From the NCBI GenBank assembly GCA_964439515.1, contig CAYTNU010000002.1, positions 9,877 to 58,250 on the forward strand: DNA of 48,374 bases. The letters run 5' to 3'. How positions within the stretch are numbered: position 1 is the stretch's first letter; each line of letters opens with the position of its first letter. Below, one piece after another: positions 13,674-21,020 of this stretch. The notes under the pieces are model-generated. The model was not told the origin of the DNA, made no database searches, and worked only from the letters and a program-made list of their open reading frames with translations. Made by a program: the position numbers and the translations under genes. This DNA comes from an uncultured Candidatus Saccharibacteria bacterium (GTDB lineage Bacteria > Patescibacteriota > Minisyncoccia > Portnoybacterales > UBA2143).

Positions 13674-14438
13674 ATGGAATCTTTCTTAAAAGAAACTAAA
13701 TATTGTGATTTTAATAATTTAAAAATTAAAGAATTAGCTTTTGATATAACTAAAAATATAAACGATGATAAAAACAAAGCAATCGCTTTATTCTATTATG
13801 TAAGAGATAGCATATTATATAGAGTTGGAAATTGGAACAAAAAAGCATCGGAAACATTATTAGAGGGGAAGGGAGTATGTACTAGTAAATCAAATCTTTT
13901 AATCGCCTTATTGAGATCGTTGGGGATACCAGCTGGATATGGCGTAATGCGTGTAAAGGGAAAAGAGTATTTTGGAAACATAGTCCCATTATTTTTTAGA
14001 GACAAGATAGGGAAAGAATCTATTCATATTTATGTTTATGTGTATCTAAATAACAGATGGATAAAATGTGATCCATCTGATGATAAAAGATTTTCAGAAA
14101 ATACTAGCTATTTTAATCCACAAAGCAAATTAGTAGATTGGAATGGCGAAAATGATGCAATCTTAAATTTAAATCCAAATCATATTTTAGAAGATAGCAA
14201 TGTCTTAGATAATATAGATGATATTATTTGTAAAGAGCCTAAAAATGCAAAAGGGATTATTTTGAATTTAGGAAATCTTTATATAGATTTTTTAAGATGG
14301 AATGATAAAAGAATTAATAATTTAGATGAGCTGGATTTTTTGTTTAAAAAGTGGTTAAAGAAAAATCATATATTATATTATTATTTTTACATTATAGGAG
14401 TTTGGTTTAGAGATAAAAGAAGTAATAAATTATGTTAG
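13674..14438 (+). CDS. transglutaminase-like cysteine peptidase superfamily protein
   Basis: GKGVCTSKSNLLIALLRSLGIPA (catalytic Cys), ..HIYVYVY.. (His) and ..KCDPSD (Asp) give the order expected for a transglutaminase core. Confidence 0.7.
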   Translation: MESFLKETKYCDFNNLKIKELAFDITKNINDDKNKAIALFYYVRDSILYRVGNWNKKASETLLEGKGVCTSKSNLLIALLRSLGIPAGYGVMRVKGKEYFGNIVPLFFRDKIGKESIHIYVYVYLNNRWIKCDPSDDKRFSENTSYFNPQSKLVDWNGENDAILNLNPNHILEDSNVLDNIDDIICKEPKNAKGIILNLGNLYIDFLRWNDKRINNLDELDFLFKKWLKKNHILYYYFYIIGVWFRDKRSNKLC

Positions 14439-16081
14439 ATATTTATACATGGTCTGTTCTTATAGTGGCTGTATTTTTTACTGTTTTTGGATCTTTTTCT
14501 TATCTTAGGAATAGGAAAGAATTGATGAACAAGCTTTTTGCGTTGCTCTCTTTGGCATTTGCAATGTGGAGTTATACTTGGTTCGCTTTGCTTCTTACTA
14601 GAGAAAATGAGCAAATCGCTTTCTTATGGGCAAGATTATTAAATATTGGAGCAATATTTATTCCTATATTTTATTTTCACTGGGTTTTATCTCTTTTAGA
14701 TTTACATAAAAAGAAAAAGATTTTAGTAATATCTGGTTATCTTGTTACATTATTATTTTTTGTTCTTAGTTTTTCTGATAAATATGTAACGGGTGTTCAT
14801 TCTATACTTTCTTTTCCTTTTTGGCCTACTGCAGGGCCTTTGTATAAATGGTTTTTAATATTTGGATACTTATGTATGGTTGGTTATTCTTTATATTTAC
14901 TATTTAAAGCATTTAATAAAAGCGAAGGAGAAAAAAAATATCAAATTGGATATGTTATTATTGGTTCTTTGATGGGATTCGGTGGAGGAGCAATGAATTT
15001 TCCTTTGATGTATAACATAGATATAATTCCTCCATTTGGTGTTTTTGCTATTATCGCTTGTCCATTAATTCTTAGTTATGCAGTAATTAAATATCATTTA
15101 ATGAACACAAAAGTTGCTACGGTTGAAATTCTTAGCGCTTTAATATCTGCCGTTTTGCTTGTTGATGCTCTATTGTCTTCGGGTACAGAATTTTATTTAA
15201 AATTCGGTCTTTTTATTGGAGTTGTTATATTCAGTATAATTTTAATCCATAGTGTTTTAAAAGAAACTAGGTCTAGAGAGAAAATTATTAAATTAGCAAA
15301 GAGTTTGAAAAAGGCTAATATTGAATTACAAAAATTAGACAAAGCAAAATCAGAATTCATTTCTATTGCTTCTCACCAATTAAGAACTCCAGTATCAGTA
15401 ATAAAAGGGATTACCTCTATGATGATTGAAGGAGATTTAGAAAAATTTCCTATAGAAAAAAAGAATAGGTTTATTGAGGGGCTGTGGAATAAAAGTTGTA
15501 AATTAGAAAATATTATTAATGACATTCTTAATGCTACAGAAATGACGAATTTTAAATATAGAGTTAAAAAAGAAAAAGCTGAATTAATTGATTTAGAAGA
15601 ATTGATTAAAAAAACAATTAGTGATTTTCAATCAATTATAAAGAAAAAAGGTGTGGATGTTATTTTAAAAAAATCTATAAAATCTTTACCGAGGATAAAT
15701 GGACAAAAACAATATCTTCAAGAAGCATTTAGTAATTTAATAGATAATGCTATTAAATATACTTCCTCTAAAGGAAAGATTGTTATATCCATTACAAAAA
15801 AAGAAAATAATGTTATCATATCTATAGAGGATAATGGCATTGGAATTCCTAAAGAAGAAATTCCTGGATTGTTTATAAAGTTCATAAGAGGTAGTAATGC
15901 GAGGGAAATGTACACAGATGGTTCTGGACTAGGACTTTTTATAGTTAGAGAAGTTATTGAAGGACATTATGGTAAAGTATGGATGGAAAGCGAACTTAAT
16001 AAGGGAACAACTTTTTTTATCAGTCTGCCAATTCATTCTTCTAAAAAAATTAATGTTAAAAATCATATTATAAATGACTAA
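14432..16081 (+). CDS. sensor histidine kinase with multi-helix membrane sensor domain
   Basis: About seven N-terminal TM helices, an H-box (SIASHQLRTP), an N-box (LIDNAIKYT), and G-boxes (DNGIGIP, GSGLGL). Confidence 0.9.
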   Translation: MLDIYTWSVLIVAVFFTVFGSFSYLRNRKELMNKLFALLSLAFAMWSYTWFALLLTRENEQIAFLWARLLNIGAIFIPIFYFHWVLSLLDLHKKKKILVISGYLVTLLFFVLSFSDKYVTGVHSILSFPFWPTAGPLYKWFLIFGYLCMVGYSLYLLFKAFNKSEGEKKYQIGYVIIGSLMGFGGGAMNFPLMYNIDIIPPFGVFAIIACPLILSYAVIKYHLMNTKVATVEILSALISAVLLVDALLSSGTEFYLKFGLFIGVVIFSIILIHSVLKETRSREKIIKLAKSLKKANIELQKLDKAKSEFISIASHQLRTPVSVIKGITSMMIEGDLEKFPIEKKNRFIEGLWNKSCKLENIINDILNATEMTNFKYRVKKEKAELIDLEELIKKTISDFQSIIKKKGVDVILKKSIKSLPRINGQKQYLQEAFSNLIDNAIKYTSSKGKIVISITKKENNVIISIEDNGIGIPKEEIPGLFIKFIRGSNAREMYTDGSGLGLFIVREVIEGHYGKVWMESELNKGTTFFISLPIHSSKKINVKNHIIND

Positions 16082-16457
16082 TAATATAAAAATATTACTC
16101 GTTGAAGACGATCCTGATCAAATTCTTATTTATCAAAGTAAATTTGAATTAGAAGGTTTCTTTTTGATAGTGGCTGATAATTATAAAGATGCGATAAAAT
16201 TTGCTTTATATGATAAACCAGATTTGATTATGTTGGATTTACTTTTAGGAAATGAAAACGGTCTTGATGTTTTAGATGAACTTAAAAAAAATTCTAAGAC
16301 CAGTAAAATTCCAGTAGTTGTTTTTACTAATTTTGATACAGAAGAAACTAAAGATAAGGCATTCAAATTAGGAGCAATTGATTATATTGTAAAGGCTCAA
16401 GTTACTCCAAGTGAAATTGTTAAAAAAGTAAGAATGATAATAGAGAAATTTAAATAA
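16074..16457 (+). CDS. single-domain response regulator (receiver only)
   Basis: ILLVEDDPDQ, DLIMLDLLL, and a VFTNF..K pattern. Overlaps the kinase gene by 8 nt. Confidence 0.9.
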   Translation: MTNNIKILLVEDDPDQILIYQSKFELEGFFLIVADNYKDAIKFALYDKPDLIMLDLLLGNENGLDVLDELKKNSKTSKIPVVVFTNFDTEETKDKAFKLGAIDYIVKAQVTPSEIVKKVRMIIEKFK

Positions 16458-16552
16458 CATGTTTCATTTTCCACAAAAAACATCTTTTGGATTAGATCTA
16501 AGTGATCTTTCTTTTAAAATTGTACAATTTAAAAAAAAGAAAGATGGTTTAT
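16446..16552 (+). repeat. left copy of an exact 107-bp direct repeat (RR stop plus first 31 codons of pilM)
   Basis: Base-for-base identical to 18596-18702 by manual alignment, at an offset of 2150 bp. Confidence 0.9.
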
Positions 16553-16602
16553 ATGTCCGTGGATGTATGCAGTGGGTTGACAATACACTGTTTTCTTGTT
16601 AG
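16459..16602 (+). pseudogene. pilM 5' remnant (31 pilM codons fused to 16 unrelated codons, then TAG)
   Basis: MFHFPQKTSFGLDLSDLSFKIVQFKKKKDGL is identical to the intact PilM N-terminus at 18609. It then diverges (YVRGCMQWVDNTLFSC*). Confidence 0.8.
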
Positions 16603-16605
16603 AAT
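16577..16605 (+). promoter_or_regulatory. consensus sigma70-like promoter (TTGACA-17 nt-TGtTAGAAT)
   Basis: TTGACA at 16577-16582, a 17-nt spacer ending in an extended -10 TG, then TAGAAT at 16600-16605. It sits 75 nt upstream of the ATP-grasp ATG. Confidence 0.6.
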
Positions 16606-16679: not shown

Positions 16680-17648
16680 ATGATATTAATTTTGACGAAT
16701 AAAATGGATGCTCATACGGATATAGTCATTGAAAAATTACACAAACGCGGGCTGGATTTTTTCAGGTGGAATATAGAGGATTTTTTGACTGAACATGGTT
16801 TTGAAATAGAAATTGAAAACGGTTGTGTAAAAAATCTAATGTTATCGGCAGAAGACAGAAATATAGATTTAGTAAAAGATGTTTCTGTGGTATGGTATAG
16901 AAGACCCGGAAAATTAGTTATTTCAGAAGCAGTTAAAGATGAAGGGTATATAGAATTCGGGTTAAGAGAAGCAAAATTTCTGTTAAATAATGTTTGGAGA
17001 TTGTTAGAAGATAAAACTTGGATAAATAATCCTTTTGAAAACAGTCAGATTGACAACAAACTTTATCAACTTAGTTTGGCTGCGAAATTAGGATTGGAAA
17101 CTCCTCATAGTTTTGTGACTAACAAGAAAAAAGAGGCCTATAATTTTATAGAGAAATATGGTGATGTGGTTGTGAAAGCAATATCGGTAGGACATGTCAA
17201 TCAAGAAAGAGGATTTAAAAACATATATACTCATAAAATTGAGGCAGATGACTTGAGTAAATTGGATTCCGTTGAGTTAGCGCCGACACTATTTCAACTA
17301 AATGTCCCAAAACAAATTGAGTTAAGAATTACGGTTATAGAAGATAGTGTTTTTTCATGTGCTATTGAATCTCAAAAATCAGAAAAAAGCAAACAAGACT
17401 GGAGGAGATATGACTTTGAAAATGTTCCTCATTATCCCTATGAAGTGCCAGAAGAAATTGAGCAAAAATTGATTGAATTTCTTCGCGTTTCGGGTTTAAA
17501 ATATGGAGCATTTGATATGGTGCTAACACCTGATGATAGATATGTTTTTCTTGAATTAAATCCCAATGGGCAGTGGTATTGGATAGAACATTTAACAGGT
17601 TTAAAGATTACAGATAAGTTGATTGATTTATTCGCAAAATACTTATAA
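16680..17648 (+). CDS. RiPP ATP-grasp macrocyclase, MdnC/MvdD (microviridin/graspetide) type
   Basis: 322 aa with SD GGGAGGTG at 16665-16672. Blocks VSVVWYRR, LYQLSLAAKLGLETP, IELRITVIEDSVF, KQDWRRY and LKYGAFDMVLTPDDRYVFLELNPNGQWYWIE parallel MdnC/MvdD blocks as I recall them. Confidence 0.85.
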   Translation: MILILTNKMDAHTDIVIEKLHKRGLDFFRWNIEDFLTEHGFEIEIENGCVKNLMLSAEDRNIDLVKDVSVVWYRRPGKLVISEAVKDEGYIEFGLREAKFLLNNVWRLLEDKTWINNPFENSQIDNKLYQLSLAAKLGLETPHSFVTNKKKEAYNFIEKYGDVVVKAISVGHVNQERGFKNIYTHKIEADDLSKLDSVELAPTLFQLNVPKQIELRITVIEDSVFSCAIESQKSEKSKQDWRRYDFENVPHYPYEVPEEIEQKLIEFLRVSGLKYGAFDMVLTPDDRYVFLELNPNGQWYWIEHLTGLKITDKLIDLFAKYL

Positions 17649-17664
17649 AAAGGAGGTGAGGCAA

Positions 17665-17844
17665 ATGAATCAAATTCCTTTTGCGGCGCAGTTTGCGGAA
17701 GACGTTCCAGAAATAAACATGAGTGGTATATATGATCCTAAACTACAAATGTTTTTACCGGAAAGTAAATCTTTTGAAGCGGGGCATACTACGACAGAAA
17801 CGGCAACTGGTGGTTGGAATGATACCGATAGTGATGTCGATTAG
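17665..17844 (+). CDS. graspetide precursor peptide (59 aa; core ..HTTTETATGGWNDTDSDVD)
   Basis: ATG 17665 lies 5 nt after the SD AAGGAGGTGA (17650-17659) and 16 nt after the ATP-grasp stop. The leader has IPFAAQFAED (compare microviridin PFFARFL). The C-terminus is Thr-rich followed by Asp-rich. A terminator follows directly. Confidence 0.75.
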   Translation: MNQIPFAAQFAEDVPEINMSGIYDPKLQMFLPESKSFEAGHTTTETATGGWNDTDSDVD

Positions 17845-17869: not shown

Positions 17870-17905
17870 ATTAGCCGCAATAAAAAAATTGCGGCTAATT
17901 TTTTA
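17870..17905 (+). terminator. rho-independent terminator after the precursor gene
   Basis: A perfect 12-bp stem, ATTAGCCGCAAT-AAAAAA-ATTGCGGCTAAT, followed by TTTTT. Confidence 0.85.
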
Positions 17906-17914
17906 ATAAATAAA

Positions 17915-18517
17915 ATGAAAAACAATAATCGTGTTAAAATTAATAATCTTTTAAATGAGCGTCGATATGGCGATGCTTTGTTGCTGTTGGAAAAAGGCAT
18001 CAAAGGGGAAAAGGATAACGATGAGTTATGTAGAAAATATGTTTTGTTAGGATGGCTTTATGATCAATGGGCTTTGAACGTTGAAAAACGAATAACCAAG
18101 AAATATCAAAAATTGGCGGAGAAATATTTTAATTTGGCTCTTGGATATAAAAAAACAAAATATGACGCTACGAGAGGATTGGCTACGGTTCTAATGCATC
18201 AGGAAAAATATGATTTGGCAATGATTTATTACAAAAAAGCCCATAGATTAAAGAAATCTTTTGATACTTACAATGATTTGGGAAATATTTATCAAAAGAT
18301 AAATAAACGCAAAACGGCAATTACTAATTACGAAAAGGCCTTTTGTTTGAGAAAGAACAAAGAGGAAGCGACTATCCCTTGTTTTAATATGATTGTGATT
18401 AGCAAGAAAGCGGGAGACAACGCGACGGAAAAGAAGTATACGGACATTTTAAAAAAACTTGCCAAAAAGTTTGGTTTGGCGAAAATGATGTTTGAAAGAT
18501 TAGATAAAGTGAAATAA
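17915..18517 (+). CDS. TPR-repeat protein (200 aa)
   Basis: Repeated TPR-like helices (YDLAMIYYKKAHRL, YNDLGNIYQKINKRKTAITNYEKAF, AEKYFNLALGY). The start is set at ATG 17915, because the track's longer ORF (17723) overlaps the precursor gene and the terminator. Confidence 0.65.
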   Translation: MKNNNRVKINNLLNERRYGDALLLLEKGIKGEKDNDELCRKYVLLGWLYDQWALNVEKRITKKYQKLAEKYFNLALGYKKTKYDATRGLATVLMHQEKYDLAMIYYKKAHRLKKSFDTYNDLGNIYQKINKRKTAITNYEKAFCLRKNKEEATIPCFNMIVISKKAGDNATEKKYTDILKKLAKKFGLAKMMFERLDKVK

Positions 18518-18570: not shown

Positions 18571-18599
18571 TTGGCTTAATAAGAAAAAAATGATAAAAT
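18571..18599 (+). promoter_or_regulatory. possible promoter at the right island junction (TTGGCT-17 nt-TGaTAAAAT)
   Basis: TTGGCT at 18571-18576, a 17-nt spacer ending in TGA, then TAAAAT at 18594-18599. It lies just upstream of pilM and straddles the start of the right repeat copy. Confidence 0.3.
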
Positions 18600-18702
18600 T
18601 TAAATAACATGTTTCATTTTCCACAAAAAACATCTTTTGGATTAGATCTAAGTGATCTTTCTTTTAAAATTGTACAATTTAAAAAAAAGAAAGATGGTTT
18701 AT
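18596..18702 (+). repeat. right copy of the exact 107-bp direct repeat
   Basis: Identical to 16446-16552. Contains the start of the intact pilM. Confidence 0.9.
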
Positions 18703-19655
18703 GTCTGTCTAGTTTTATTAAACAAGATATTCCTAAAGGATTAGTTGAAGAAGGAGAGATAAAAAAAGAAAAAGAATTAATTGATATTTTAAAAAAAACT
18801 TTGATTAAAATGAAGGTAGGGAAGAGAGTGGTTTGTAATCTGCCAGAAGAAAAAGTTTTTATTCGAATTATTCAATTGCCGAAAATGAAAGAAAGCGAAT
18901 TAGAAAAAGCAATTAATTGGGAGGCTGAAGCCAATATTCCATTAGTTATTGATGAAGCATATTTAGGATGGCAAGTTATTGATCCAATTTTTGAACATAT
19001 TGATCATCTTGATATTTTGATCGCAGCTGCTCCTCGAACATTAGTAGATAATTATTTAAGTTTTTTAAGGAAAAGCGGACTTGAACCAATAGCATTAGAA
19101 CCAGAATCAGCTTCTATAATTAGAAGTATAATGACTAAAGATGATTTAACGCCAAGTATTATTGTTGACCTAGGGGCAGTGGGATCAAATTTTGTTATAT
19201 TTTCTGCTTTAGCAATACGCTTTACTTCTCATATAAAGATTTCTGGTCAACTTTTTAATAAAGCAATAATGAAAGAATTAAAAGTAAGTGAAAAAGAAGC
19301 TGATAAATTAAAAATTAATGTTGGATTAGATAAGAAAAAAGAAAAAGGAATGGTTTATAATGCATTAGAACCAATTATTGATGATTTAGCTAAGCAGATT
19401 AATGATTATATTGTCTTTTATCATGAACACGCTACTCATGTTCATGGTCCAGATGGAGCGATAGGACAGATAATTCTTTGTGGAGGTGATTCTTTATTAT
19501 TAAATCTACCTGAATTATTAAGTGAAAAATTAAAGTTACCAGTTAAAATGGGCAATTCTTTAATTAATGTTTCATCAAAAGGTATATCTCTTCCTAAGAA
19601 AGAATCTTTTACATACGCCACTGCAATAGGACTAGCCTTAAAAGAATTCTTATAA
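18609..19655 (+). CDS. pilM: type IV pilus assembly ATPase-fold protein PilM
   Basis: Actin/FtsA-like fold pattern (GLDLS.., ..DLGAVGSNF.., ..ILCGGDS..). It sits upstream of PilN/PilO-like genes. Confidence 0.85.
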   Translation: MFHFPQKTSFGLDLSDLSFKIVQFKKKKDGLCLSSFIKQDIPKGLVEEGEIKKEKELIDILKKTLIKMKVGKRVVCNLPEEKVFIRIIQLPKMKESELEKAINWEAEANIPLVIDEAYLGWQVIDPIFEHIDHLDILIAAAPRTLVDNYLSFLRKSGLEPIALEPESASIIRSIMTKDDLTPSIIVDLGAVGSNFVIFSALAIRFTSHIKISGQLFNKAIMKELKVSEKEADKLKINVGLDKKKEKGMVYNALEPIIDDLAKQINDYIVFYHEHATHVHGPDGAIGQIILCGGDSLLLNLPELLSEKLKLPVKMGNSLINVSSKGISLPKKESFTYATAIGLALKEFL

Positions 19656-19657
19656 TA

Positions 19658-20197
19658 ATGTTTAAACTTAATCTTTTACCACCAAAAGATAAAAAAAGAT
19701 TAGAATTAATTGATTTTAGCTATCTATTAGTTTATTTTGGTTTTCGATTAGTAATTGTTTTTATTATTTTTATTTTAATTTTAATTACTACTTATTTCTC
19801 TCTTTTTATTCTTGTTAATTCACAGGAAGGATTGATAGGGGTTAGACAAAGCAATGAAAATGCTCAATTACAAATGGAAATTGAAAAGAAAATAGAAGAA
19901 ACGAATAAAGATGCTAGACAATTATATGTTAAACAGAGTGAGATAATTGTTTGGACTCCTATTTTGGAAAAACTAAGTAAAATTACTCCTGATGGAATTT
20001 ATTTAACTAGTTTTTCTTATCTCTCAATTGACGATAAAGTTAATATAGTTGGATGGGCTGAAAATAGAGATAAGCTGTTATCTTTTAAAGATTCTTTAGA
20101 AGAAATCCCTTATTTTAAAGATGTATATGCGCCTTTAAGTAATTTAATTAAACAAACTGATATTAATTTTAATTTTACTCTTAAATCAATAGAATGA
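19658..20197 (+). CDS. pilN: type IV pilus assembly protein PilN-like
   Basis: N-terminal LNLLPPKDKKR motif, then one TM helix and a coiled coil. Confidence 0.75.
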   Translation: MFKLNLLPPKDKKRLELIDFSYLLVYFGFRLVIVFIIFILILITTYFSLFILVNSQEGLIGVRQSNENAQLQMEIEKKIEETNKDARQLYVKQSEIIVWTPILEKLSKITPDGIYLTSFSYLSIDDKVNIVGWAENRDKLLSFKDSLEEIPYFKDVYAPLSNLIKQTDINFNFTLKSIE

Positions 20198-20742
20198 ATT
20201 TTATTCAAAAAAAACTTATTGGTTCTATTATAATTGTTGTAATTGTCTTAGCTCTTATTATCTGGTTGGCTGTTTTACCATTAGTAGGAAAAATTAAATA
20301 TTTATCTCAAGAGTATTTATCTAATCAAGGAATTCTAGCTCAAATAGATCAAAAGGAATTTTTATTTAAAGATTTAGAAAAAGATTATCAAGAAATAGAA
20401 GATGAATTATTAATCATTAAAGGAGTTTTTCTTGAAAAAGAAAAAATAGTTAGTTTTATTCCTGATTTAGAATCTATTGCTAAATTTACTGGAAACATTT
20501 TTGAAATTACAACCGTTATGTCTTCTTCTGATGAAGAAGAAAATAGAGAAAAATTCCTTAGTCTAAATATTTCTCTTCGTGGTGATTTTAAAAATTTACT
20601 TCTTTTTCTATCTAATTTAGAAGATAGTCCCTATCCTCCTTATCGTTTATTGGAAATAGATAAATTATCAATTAATAGATTAGATGACGAAGAGGATTAT
20701 AGATTAGAAACTAATTTAAGAATTAAAGTTTATACAAAATGA
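20194..20742 (+). CDS. PilO-like pilus assembly protein
   Basis: N-terminal TM helix, coiled coil and C-terminal ferredoxin-like region. Its ATGA overlaps pilN. Assignment is by position and topology only. Confidence 0.55.
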   Translation: MNFIQKKLIGSIIIVVIVLALIIWLAVLPLVGKIKYLSQEYLSNQGILAQIDQKEFLFKDLEKDYQEIEDELLIIKGVFLEKEKIVSFIPDLESIAKFTGNIFEITTVMSSSDEEENREKFLSLNISLRGDFKNLLLFLSNLEDSPYPPYRLLEIDKLSINRLDDEEDYRLETNLRIKVYTK

Positions 20743-21020
20743 AAATAAAGATTAATTTATCATTAGAAAGAATATCTAGTTTTTTAAAAAAATATCATTT
20801 TTTTATTTTGGGTATAATTTTTATTTTATTACTCTGTTTTAATGCCTTTATATATTATCAATATGTTTATGTAGCAACGAATATGAACGTAGATCCAGTT
20901 GATGAGAGAATTGTTGTTGATGAAGATGTACTTAAAAAAGTTATTGAAAGTATAGATGAAAGAAAAGATAATTTAATAAGAGTTAAGACAGAAAGCTATT
21001 CTACTCCTTTTGATGATTGA
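20739..21020 (+). CDS. small membrane-anchored hypothetical protein in the pil cluster
   Basis: 93 aa with one TM helix. Its ATGA overlaps the PilO-like gene. Confidence 0.5.
   Translation: MKIKINLSLERISSFLKKYHFFILGIIFILLLCFNAFIYYQYVYVATNMNVDPVDERIVVDEDVLKKVIESIDERKDNLIRVKTESYSTPFDD

Follow-up and report, generated by a model that had tools for sequence, protein, structure and literature searches.

A candidate graspetide precursor in a repeat-bounded three-gene cassette of an uncultured Candidatus Saccharibacteria bacterium

Which enzyme acts on a 59-residue peptide that ends in a threonine-rich segment, a Gly-Gly-Trp-Asn sequence and an alternating run of aspartates, and which rings does that enzyme close? 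The question is raised by a short gene at positions 17665–17844 (+ strand) of the DNA analysed here (hereafter the window: a 48,374 nt stretch of contig CAYTNU010000002.1, from an assembly, GCA_964439515.1, labelled as an uncultured Candidatus Saccharibacteria bacterium). The gene lies between those for an ATP-grasp ligase and a tetratricopeptide repeat (TPR) protein. An initial annotation of the same DNA had proposed that it encodes the precursor of a graspetide with a ladder of ester cross-links. Graspetides are exploited as protease-inhibitor scaffolds and in cyclising peptides and proteins by enzymes, and each new ligase–core pair adds a ring pattern that is unpredictable from sequence. 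The present system is also very small: a putative substrate of 59 aa, a ligase of 322 aa and a partner of 200 aa. Our analysis indicates that the peptide is probably the precursor (A) of a three-gene graspetide cassette—consisting of the ATP-grasp ligase (B), the precursor and the TPR protein—and that its product may carry nested esters.

The precursor gene and its ligase

The elements of the locus that bear directly on this proposal are listed here.

16577..16605, + strand: promoter-like site, TTGACA-17-TAGAAT with an extended TG (11/12 consensus matches, the best in the region)
16680..17648, + strand: graspetide synthetase gene, encoding a 322-aa ATP-grasp ligase whose pre-ATP-grasp domain is of the MvdD type (sequence matches to domains and to solved synthetases)
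17651..17656, + strand: Shine-Dalgarno sequence of the precursor gene, AGGAGG (read in the sequence)
17665..17844, + strand: precursor peptide gene, 59 aa plus stop (open reading frame, conservation, profile matches)
17677..17700, + strand: leader recognition motif P5-F-A-A-Q-F-A-E12, or PFxxxFxE (conservation; AlphaFold2 helix)
17725..17760, + strand: second leader element, G21-x-Y23-D-x-x-x-Q28-x-F (conservation; predicted beta-hairpin, residues 21–32)
17788..17841, + strand: core, T42-T-T-E45-T46-A-T48-G-G50-W-N-D53-T54-D55-S-D57-V-D59 (conservation, column counts, covariation)
17870..17899, + strand: intrinsic-terminator-like hairpin and T-run between the precursor and TPR genes (12-bp stem with 5 GC pairs, then TTTTTAATAA)

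Translation of the short gene yields MNQIPFAAQFAEDVPEINMSGIYDPKLQMFLPESKSFEAGHTTTETATGGWNDTDSDVD, followed by a stop codon. This is the peptide given in the initial annotation, whose residue numbers are all correct (P5–A11 = PFAAQFA; T42–T44, E45, T46, T48, G49–N52, D53–D57 and D59). The gene begins 16 nt after the ligase stop codon, on the same strand, and is preceded by a strong ribosome-binding site (as AAGGAGG, 8–14 nt before the ATG). Downstream, the terminator-like hairpin begins 26 nt past the precursor stop codon; it may act as an attenuator that favours an excess of precursor transcript. The only two lysines of the peptide, K26 and K35, lie in the leader, and the core, TTTETATGGWNDTDSDVD, contains neither Lys nor Pro nor the sequence PSD. 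Potential hydroxyl donors (T42, T46 and T48) precede the potential acceptors (D53, D55, D57 and D59). Scans of the peptide against Pfam, NCBIfam (E ≤ 1) and PADLOC gave no match. Likewise, comparison of the family profile (see below) with the sequences of the Protein Data Bank (PDB) revealed no relative, 8DYM and 7LIF being undetectable by sequence.

Judged by its domains and residues, the product of the upstream gene is a graspetide synthetase with intact catalytic motifs. It matches PF21068 (MvdD pre-ATP-grasp; 6.3e-13, 49.3 bits against a gathering score of 27) and PF08443 (RimK ATP-grasp; 1e-7, 32.2 bits against a gathering score of 21). Among NCBIfam models, TIGR04187 scores best (263 bits against a cut-off of 350), followed by MvdC (228) and MvdD (213), all under their curated cut-offs. 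The closest solved synthetases are CdnC (5e-47) and MdnB/MdnC (~1e-44, to 6e-44), while PsnB is only distantly related (3e-10). Across 29 relatives of the ligase there is no variation at R74/R75 (the arginines of WYRRP), K166, E214, R216, E292 or N294, and conservation of the N-terminal pattern M-[LI]-L-[IV]-x-[TS]-N-K-x-D backs the start at 16680. A tblastn search of the whole 48-kb window found no second graspetide ligase. The promoter-like site lies upstream of the ligase gene, inside the cassette and just inward of its left bounding repeat (see below); from its consensus match, it may serve as a promoter.

Taken together, the graspetide features that can be examined in silico are all present at this locus: (i) a ligase of the MvdC/MvdD/MdnC type, (ii) an adjacent short precursor with a PFFARFL-like, or Phhx(1,2)h, leader, and (iii) donors N-terminal to acceptors.

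Conservation of the precursor and covariation in its core

A search with the single peptide sequence returned only the peptide itself (on 56 contigs) and one homologue of 81% identity. A larger family emerged from the surroundings of the ligase. We gathered 160 loci (designated L plus a number) around relatives of the ligase and inspected the small open reading frames (ORFs) beside them. Ligases of 36–63% identity are adjoined by peptides with the same leader and core, in unrelated flanking contexts. Because such peptides accompany homologous ligases in many contexts, the ORF at 17665–17844 is a real, conserved gene. The initial annotation had named a lack of conservation next to homologous ligases as grounds for giving up its proposal; the conservation is there, and on this point the proposal stands.

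A profile built from 16 of these sequences recovered 53 clusters (90% identity). Searching 1.84 billion representative proteins with a profile of 51 sequences gave 60 matches, or about 55 true clusters at 50% identity (matches P0199 and P0207 were rejected as compositional false positives). None of the family clusters carries a Pfam domain or a name other than 'hypothetical protein'. The cassette is seen mainly in uncultured bacteria of very small size, with family loci in Ryanbacteria, 'Saccharibacteria' and other genome bins of the candidate phyla radiation (CPR). Codon comparisons reveal that the core is under purifying selection: the gene in the window differs from its orthologue in L001 at 55 of 180 nt, with eight synonymous and two non-synonymous changes in the 18 core codons, and the core codons of L001 and L164 differ by six synonymous changes and no non-synonymous ones.

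Conservation falls into three blocks. In the leader, F6, F10 and E12 do not vary in the first 16 members and are at least 90% conserved in the alignment of 51 sequences, where G21, Y23 and Q28 reach the same level. AlphaFold2, run on the precursor with the alignment of 51 homologues, predicts a helix at residues 6–10 and a beta-hairpin formed by strands 21–24 and 29–32 (top pLDDT 89). The model thus supports a leader of two parts, the first of which is the PFAAQFA segment that the initial annotation had likened to the leader helix of microviridins. The second element, G-x-Y-D-x-x-x-Q-x-F, is also found in other CPR and cyanobacterial graspetide leaders (e.g., cluster6190; PMC8939145).

The third block is the core. 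No variation is seen among the 51 sequences at T42, T46, T48, G50, D53 or D55, and conservation is at least 90% at E45, G49 and T54. The family consensus reads T42-x-x-E45-T46-x-T48-G49-G50-(H/W/Y)-(G/N)-D53-T54-D55-(T/S)-D57-x-D59, often with a further xD or ED. Position 57 is Asp in 43 of 50 unique cores. Position 44 is variable (V 19, T 14, I 5, S 4, Y 4, E 2, C 2), such that a hydroxyl residue occurs there in 18 of the 50.

A sister family, with precursors just upstream of the ligase (L084, L085, L086, L087, L088 and L092), shares the leader PFxxxFxE...GxYDxxxQxW. Its cores, (P/A)TxTxTxT...DxDxD(W), have no equivalent of Glu45, and a TPR homologue is missing from its loci. The resemblance to a plain Thr/Asp ladder is even closer in these cores.

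Two core positions change together. Eighty-four distinct family sequences, anchored on T.T.G..D.D, were tabulated at positions 45 and 54. All 67 sequences with E45 have Thr or Ser at position 54 (other residues, 0). Of the remainder, 16 have V, M or Q at position 54, and one has Ser; this lone sequence comes from a different core family. The association is strong (Fisher p = 2.7e-16, uncorrected for phylogeny). In the 17 members that lack E45, position 45 varies freely (T, L, Y, A, G, K, W or S), and Thr is retained at position 42 in 14 of them, a pattern that excludes T42 as the partner of E45. The nearest leader relatives of the non-E45 members are members with the Glu/Thr pair, and this holds in at least five leader lineages (nearest-leader pairs include P0178/P0175 at 53%, P0192/L001 at 51% and P0196/P0133 at 44%). 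Finally, 45–54 is the top pair in the core by corrected mutual information (0.57, versus 0.21 for the next positional pair); the pair that ranks second overall, 60–61 (0.449), reflects only the presence or absence of the C-terminal extension. No covariation signal was seen for T44–D57 or for the other cross-strand candidates.

Perfect covariation, recurrence in several leader lineages and top mutual information together argue that E45 and T54 very probably function as a unit. The initial annotation had foreseen neither this coupling nor the TPR partner described below. Family members with and without the pair are, in effect, natural 'mutants', which make the connectivity of the product directly testable.

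The proposed ring pattern and known graspetides

The family-wide pairing of ligase and peptide makes it very likely that the peptide is a genuine substrate of the adjacent enzyme. By homology to MdnC, CdnC and PsnB, the ligase would bind the leader via the PFxxxFxE helix, and probably via the GxYDxxxQ hairpin too. Using ATP, it would then phosphorylate side-chain carboxylates of the C-terminal acidic strand, and Thr hydroxyls of the N-terminal strand would attack the activated groups to form omega-esters and no amides. Since the core has no Lys and the locus a single ligase, esters alone are expected, as the initial annotation had correctly anticipated; it was equally right that the core is not that of a microviridin (TxKxPSD).

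We consider it likely that the product carries at least three esters. Three nested links would be the most probable: (i) T48–D53, closing the GGWN turn, (ii) T46–D55, and (iii) T42–D59. This three-link core is proposed because of the family-wide conservation and an equal-spacing rule: in solved stem-loop graspetides, Thr-Asp esters are equally spaced on both strands, a rule that correctly predicted albusimiditide (bioRxiv 10.1101/2023.06.21.545981). T44–D57 is a possible fourth link, and would be restricted to the window's own clade at best because position 44 is usually V or I elsewhere. Thus, of the three or four stacked links originally suggested, the family-wide part comes to three: the invariance of T42, T46, T48, D53 and D55, and the frequent conservation of D57 and D59, fit nesting, while T44 is unconserved. 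The E45/T54 pair would also be involved, either by forming one more link or by pairing for structure or recognition.

How firmly can a purely nested hairpin be held? We put it at slightly less than an even chance, and several observations weigh against the proposal as a whole. D59, the outermost acceptor, is Asp in 39 of 50 unique cores, and some members end in xxED instead. The unmodified core is disordered in the AlphaFold2 model (pLDDT 56–60), which consequently provides no independent support for a hairpin register. The cassette contains neither a protease nor an exporter. One locus, L105 3715-4960 (from a high-GC organism, on a 684-kb contig), has precursor and ligase without a TPR gene, with uvrA next. 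A nested model leaves the invariance and coupling of E45 and T54 unexplained. Two published findings point the same way, and both also favour a different outcome from the same substrate and enzyme: interlocked, cage-like rings (e.g., T46–D53 crossing T48–D55, or a rosaritide-like arrangement), with or without a link from E45. Makarova et al. consider motifs no guide to connectivity (PMC8939145). In rosaritide, the product of a TIGR04187-type ligase with the pattern SSxT...DTDSD, donors S8, S9 and T11 are joined to acceptors D22, D24 and D26 of a D-T-D-S-D tail by crossing links (T11–D24, S9–D26 and S8–D22), and the Thr and Ser residues interleaved between the acceptors are not donors (PMC13097080). 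A connectivity cannot, therefore, be read from the motif in the manner of the initial annotation. An E45–T54 link would itself cross T46–D55. Yet the four-residue loop (GGxx) between the invariant T48 and D53, with symmetrical spacings (2/2, 4/4), typifies solved stem-loop graspetides (bioRxiv 10.1101/2023.06.21.545981), and G49-G50 is a classic turn; on this balance, interlocked rings appear rather unlikely, though the most serious of the alternatives.

The covariation invites a bolder proposal, namely that an additional ester joins T54 (as donor) to E45 (as acceptor). Here the acceptor is N-terminal to the donor, a polarity unseen in characterised graspetides, and if such a link were real, the rule that donors lie N-terminal to acceptors would fall. 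The 67/0/1/16 distribution among 84 sequences, the top mutual-information rank, the recurrence in at least five leader lineages and the exclusion of T42 all speak for it. In opposition, every mapped graspetide link has an N-terminal donor (bioRxiv 10.1101/2023.06.21.545981), a reverse-order variant of ThfA was left unmodified by ThfB (PMC12291112), and the Thr and Ser of rosaritide that lie between acceptor Asp residues are non-donors (PMC13097080). Furthermore, hydrogen bonding between the two residues across the strands, or their recognition together by the enzyme, could account equally well for the covariation, and similarity over a 40-aa leader is a weak phylogenetic guide. We regard the reversed ester as improbable. 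Slightly more doubtful still is the composite view that this is an obligate three-component system (ligase, precursor and TPR protein), mobile as a unit of 2 kb and belonging to an unnamed, mainly CPR group, in which nested Thr-Asp esters are combined with the reversed T54–E45 ester to give a doubly stapled, partly interlocked hairpin unlike characterised graspetides. Two further explanations seem very remote. G49-G50 could be a double-glycine leader cleavage site, which would leave the C-terminal nonapeptide WNDTDSDVD as the mature core and T54 and S56 as its donors; precursors of ribosomally synthesised and post-translationally modified peptides are often cleaved at GG motifs, such motifs have been highlighted for CPR precursors (PMC8939145), and G50 is invariant. 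However, T42, E45, T46 and T48 lie just upstream, where conservation of this kind would not be expected if a leader ended there, neither a C39 peptidase nor a PCAT transporter occurs in the cassette or any family locus seen, and rings within nine residues would be very small. Even less credible is that the ORF is spurious, or an unrelated small gene, with the ligase acting elsewhere: no database family matches the peptide, but its co-occurrence with the ligase across rearranged loci, the purifying selection on its core, its ribosome-binding site and its leader motif all tell against this.

Returning to the nested Thr-Asp hairpin, we compared the locus with known systems. CPR graspetide loci have been predicted before: a purely computational study from 2022 reported such loci, with TPR-repeat neighbours ('role unclear') and the signature TxxxTx(6-10)Dx(1-4)D (PMC8939145). 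The present locus resembles 'Branch 1' of that study in its CPR hosts, single MvdD-type ligase, short precursor and Phhx(1,2)h leader (here P5-F-A-A-Q-F), and its core fits the signature exactly (T42-x3-T46-x6-D53-x1-D55, i.e., T42-TTE-T46-ATGGWN-D53-T-D55). The Branch 1 example among our loci (L009, cluster1029) nevertheless differs: its ligase is 36.5% identical (a level shared by many non-CPR ligases), its core is different and its neighbour is not a TPR gene. Motif-string searches of the accessible part of the study's supplement did not find this core among the 174 published precursor clusters. In our literature searches, this was the only report of CPR/Patescibacteria graspetides.

The closest structural parallels are the graspimiditides (Ramesh group 13): amycolimiditide (PDB 8DYM), albusimiditide, fuscimiditide and SsfA are stem-loops with two to five stacked Thr-Asp omega-esters on a T-x-T ... 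D-x-D scaffold. With these precedents for both the stacking and the spacing rule (bioRxiv 10.1101/2023.06.21.545981; PMC13001092), the ladder does not constitute a new topology, contrary to the initial annotation. Graspimiditide clusters are, however, near-restricted to Actinomycetota and encode a PIMT-type O-methyltransferase that forms an aspartimide within a longer loop; the present cassette encodes no methyltransferase, and the four-residue GGWN loop lacks Asp-Gly. Membership of group 13 was rejected on these grounds, together with the sub-threshold TIGR04187 score (263 < 350) and the failure of the precursor to match TIGR04186.

Rosaritide (group 21; Carter et al. 2026, PMC13097080) shares the D-T-D-S-D tail, a strictly co-occurring non-catalytic protein encoded next to the ligase, and ester-only chemistry; it differs in its SurA/PpiC-like partner, long Pro-rich loop, interlocked links, PCAT exporter and actinomycete host. 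Microviridins (group 1) have a homologous ligase and a PFFARFL-like leader helix. Microviridin membership was rejected: the TxKxPSDx(D/E)(D/E) core, Lys amide, second ligase, GNAT acetyltransferase and ABC transporter are all absent here, and the neighbouring genes in the window encode a response regulator, a TPR protein and PilM. Plesiocin and thuringinin (groups 2 and 3) are similar in their hairpin-like, nested Thr-Glu/Asp esters and one ligase, but differ in spacing (TTxxxxEE; TxxTxxTxxxExxDxD), in their repeated cores and in the remoteness of PsnB. None of the representatives printed for groups 25–43 resembles this core (Carter 2026; none is printed for 26 and 31), and TPR co-occurrence is listed for group 39 only, at 21%.

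Accordingly, neither multi-ester hairpins nor graspetide loci in CPR bacteria are new. The novelty lies in a rare, sharply defined family that has its own TPR partner, a cassette bounded by repeats and a Glu/Thr pair that co-varies perfectly. The claim of a new core class is plausible at the family level, on a comparison that takes in groups 25–43 and the 174 clusters of the CPR study and not groups 4–24 (Lee 2020; Ramesh 2021). No match was found in the published lists compared, while the CPR loci and the signature that this core fits have been in print since 2022 (PMC8939145).

The TPR partner and the repeat-bounded cassette

The remaining elements concern the third gene and the limits of the cassette.

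16446..16552, no strand: perfect 107-nt direct repeat, left copy (made up of the final 12 nt of the response-regulator gene, a single nt and the opening 94 nt of pilM)
17915..18517, + strand: cytoplasmic TPR protein of 200 aa, third cassette gene (TPR_1 2.7e-8 and TPR_2 5.9e-8, both above the gathering score)
18596..18702, no strand: 107-nt direct repeat, right copy (start of the intact pilM at 18609)

A TPR homologue stands beside the ligase and precursor genes in 14 of 15 non-redundant family loci (the window, L001, L164/166, L167/168, L169-171, L172, L173, L002, L003, L112, L115, L134, L102 and L016, the last with 28% identity, E = 1e-11). By contrast, it was found in none of the 145 other graspetide-ligase loci (0/145). 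The association persists through three gene orders: ligase-precursor-TPR, precursor-TPR-ligase and precursor-ligase-TPR. The TPR protein is thus a dedicated partner of the system; it may bind the leader or ligase, act as a chaperone or confer immunity. Partner-dependent graspetide synthetases have a precedent (PMC13097080), and if the TPR protein were required, this would be a second, unrelated case. A separate locus, L094 1581-3249, has a ligase (41% identical) followed by a TPR homologue, with no recognisable precursor ORF nearby.

The two direct repeats are 100% identical, lie 2150 nt apart and enclose exactly the ligase, precursor and TPR genes. GC content is 0.31–0.35 inside the cassette and 0.25–0.29 in its flanks, and the same repeat-bracketed structure occurs on contigs from other samples. 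It looks as though a cassette of ~2.04 kb was inserted as a unit between the response-regulator gene and pilM, with duplication of host sequence. No empty site (response regulator followed directly by pilM) appears among the matches listed for contigs that encode the regulator; all sites listed, from four samples and 23 contigs, carry the insertion. The left repeat creates an ORF of 47 aa (16459-16602), whose first 31 residues are the N-terminus of PilM (gene at 18609). This ORF was rejected as a second precursor, being a duplicated N-terminal PilM fragment.

Directly 3' of the cassette are type IV pilus assembly genes (pilM, pilN and neighbours; window 18609-21020), pilM having been left intact by the insertion. 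On the other side, a histidine kinase with a 7TM sensor domain (PF16927) is encoded within a few kb of the cassette, as is the case in five non-redundant family loci:

PF16927 kinases: window 14432-16081; L016 5687-6823; L172 7159-8754; L170 237-1853; L082 1-168

Outside the family set, matches to this kinase were limited to L161 and L162 (from the window's own genome) and one unlisted locus. The link between kinase and cassette could be functional (peptide sensing) or a product of CPR taxonomic bias. For the question of how ultra-small symbiotic bacteria deal with hosts or competitors, a peptide cassette that is mobile and adjoins genes for pili and a sensor kinase offers a concrete lead. Upstream of the kinase gene lies that of a transglutaminase-core protein, which has a cysteine-protease fold (window 13674-14438). 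It was rejected as a candidate leader protease, since it lies beyond the repeats that bound the cassette and none of the other family loci has it.

Some relatives of the cassette differ from it in ligase content. Two carry an extra RimK-type ATP-grasp gene (284 aa) 3' of the TPR gene (L164 2408-3262 and L166 2407-3261), and another a 168-aa pre-ATP-grasp fragment 5' of the ligase (L173 1216-1722); neither is present in the window. In the closest relative (L082 1461-2299, labelled Candidatus Portnoybacteria; ligase 85% identical), the ligase breaks off near residue 214, directly before the TPR gene. The precursor gene and the region for the C-terminal half of the ligase have been deleted, which makes this cassette a decaying copy.

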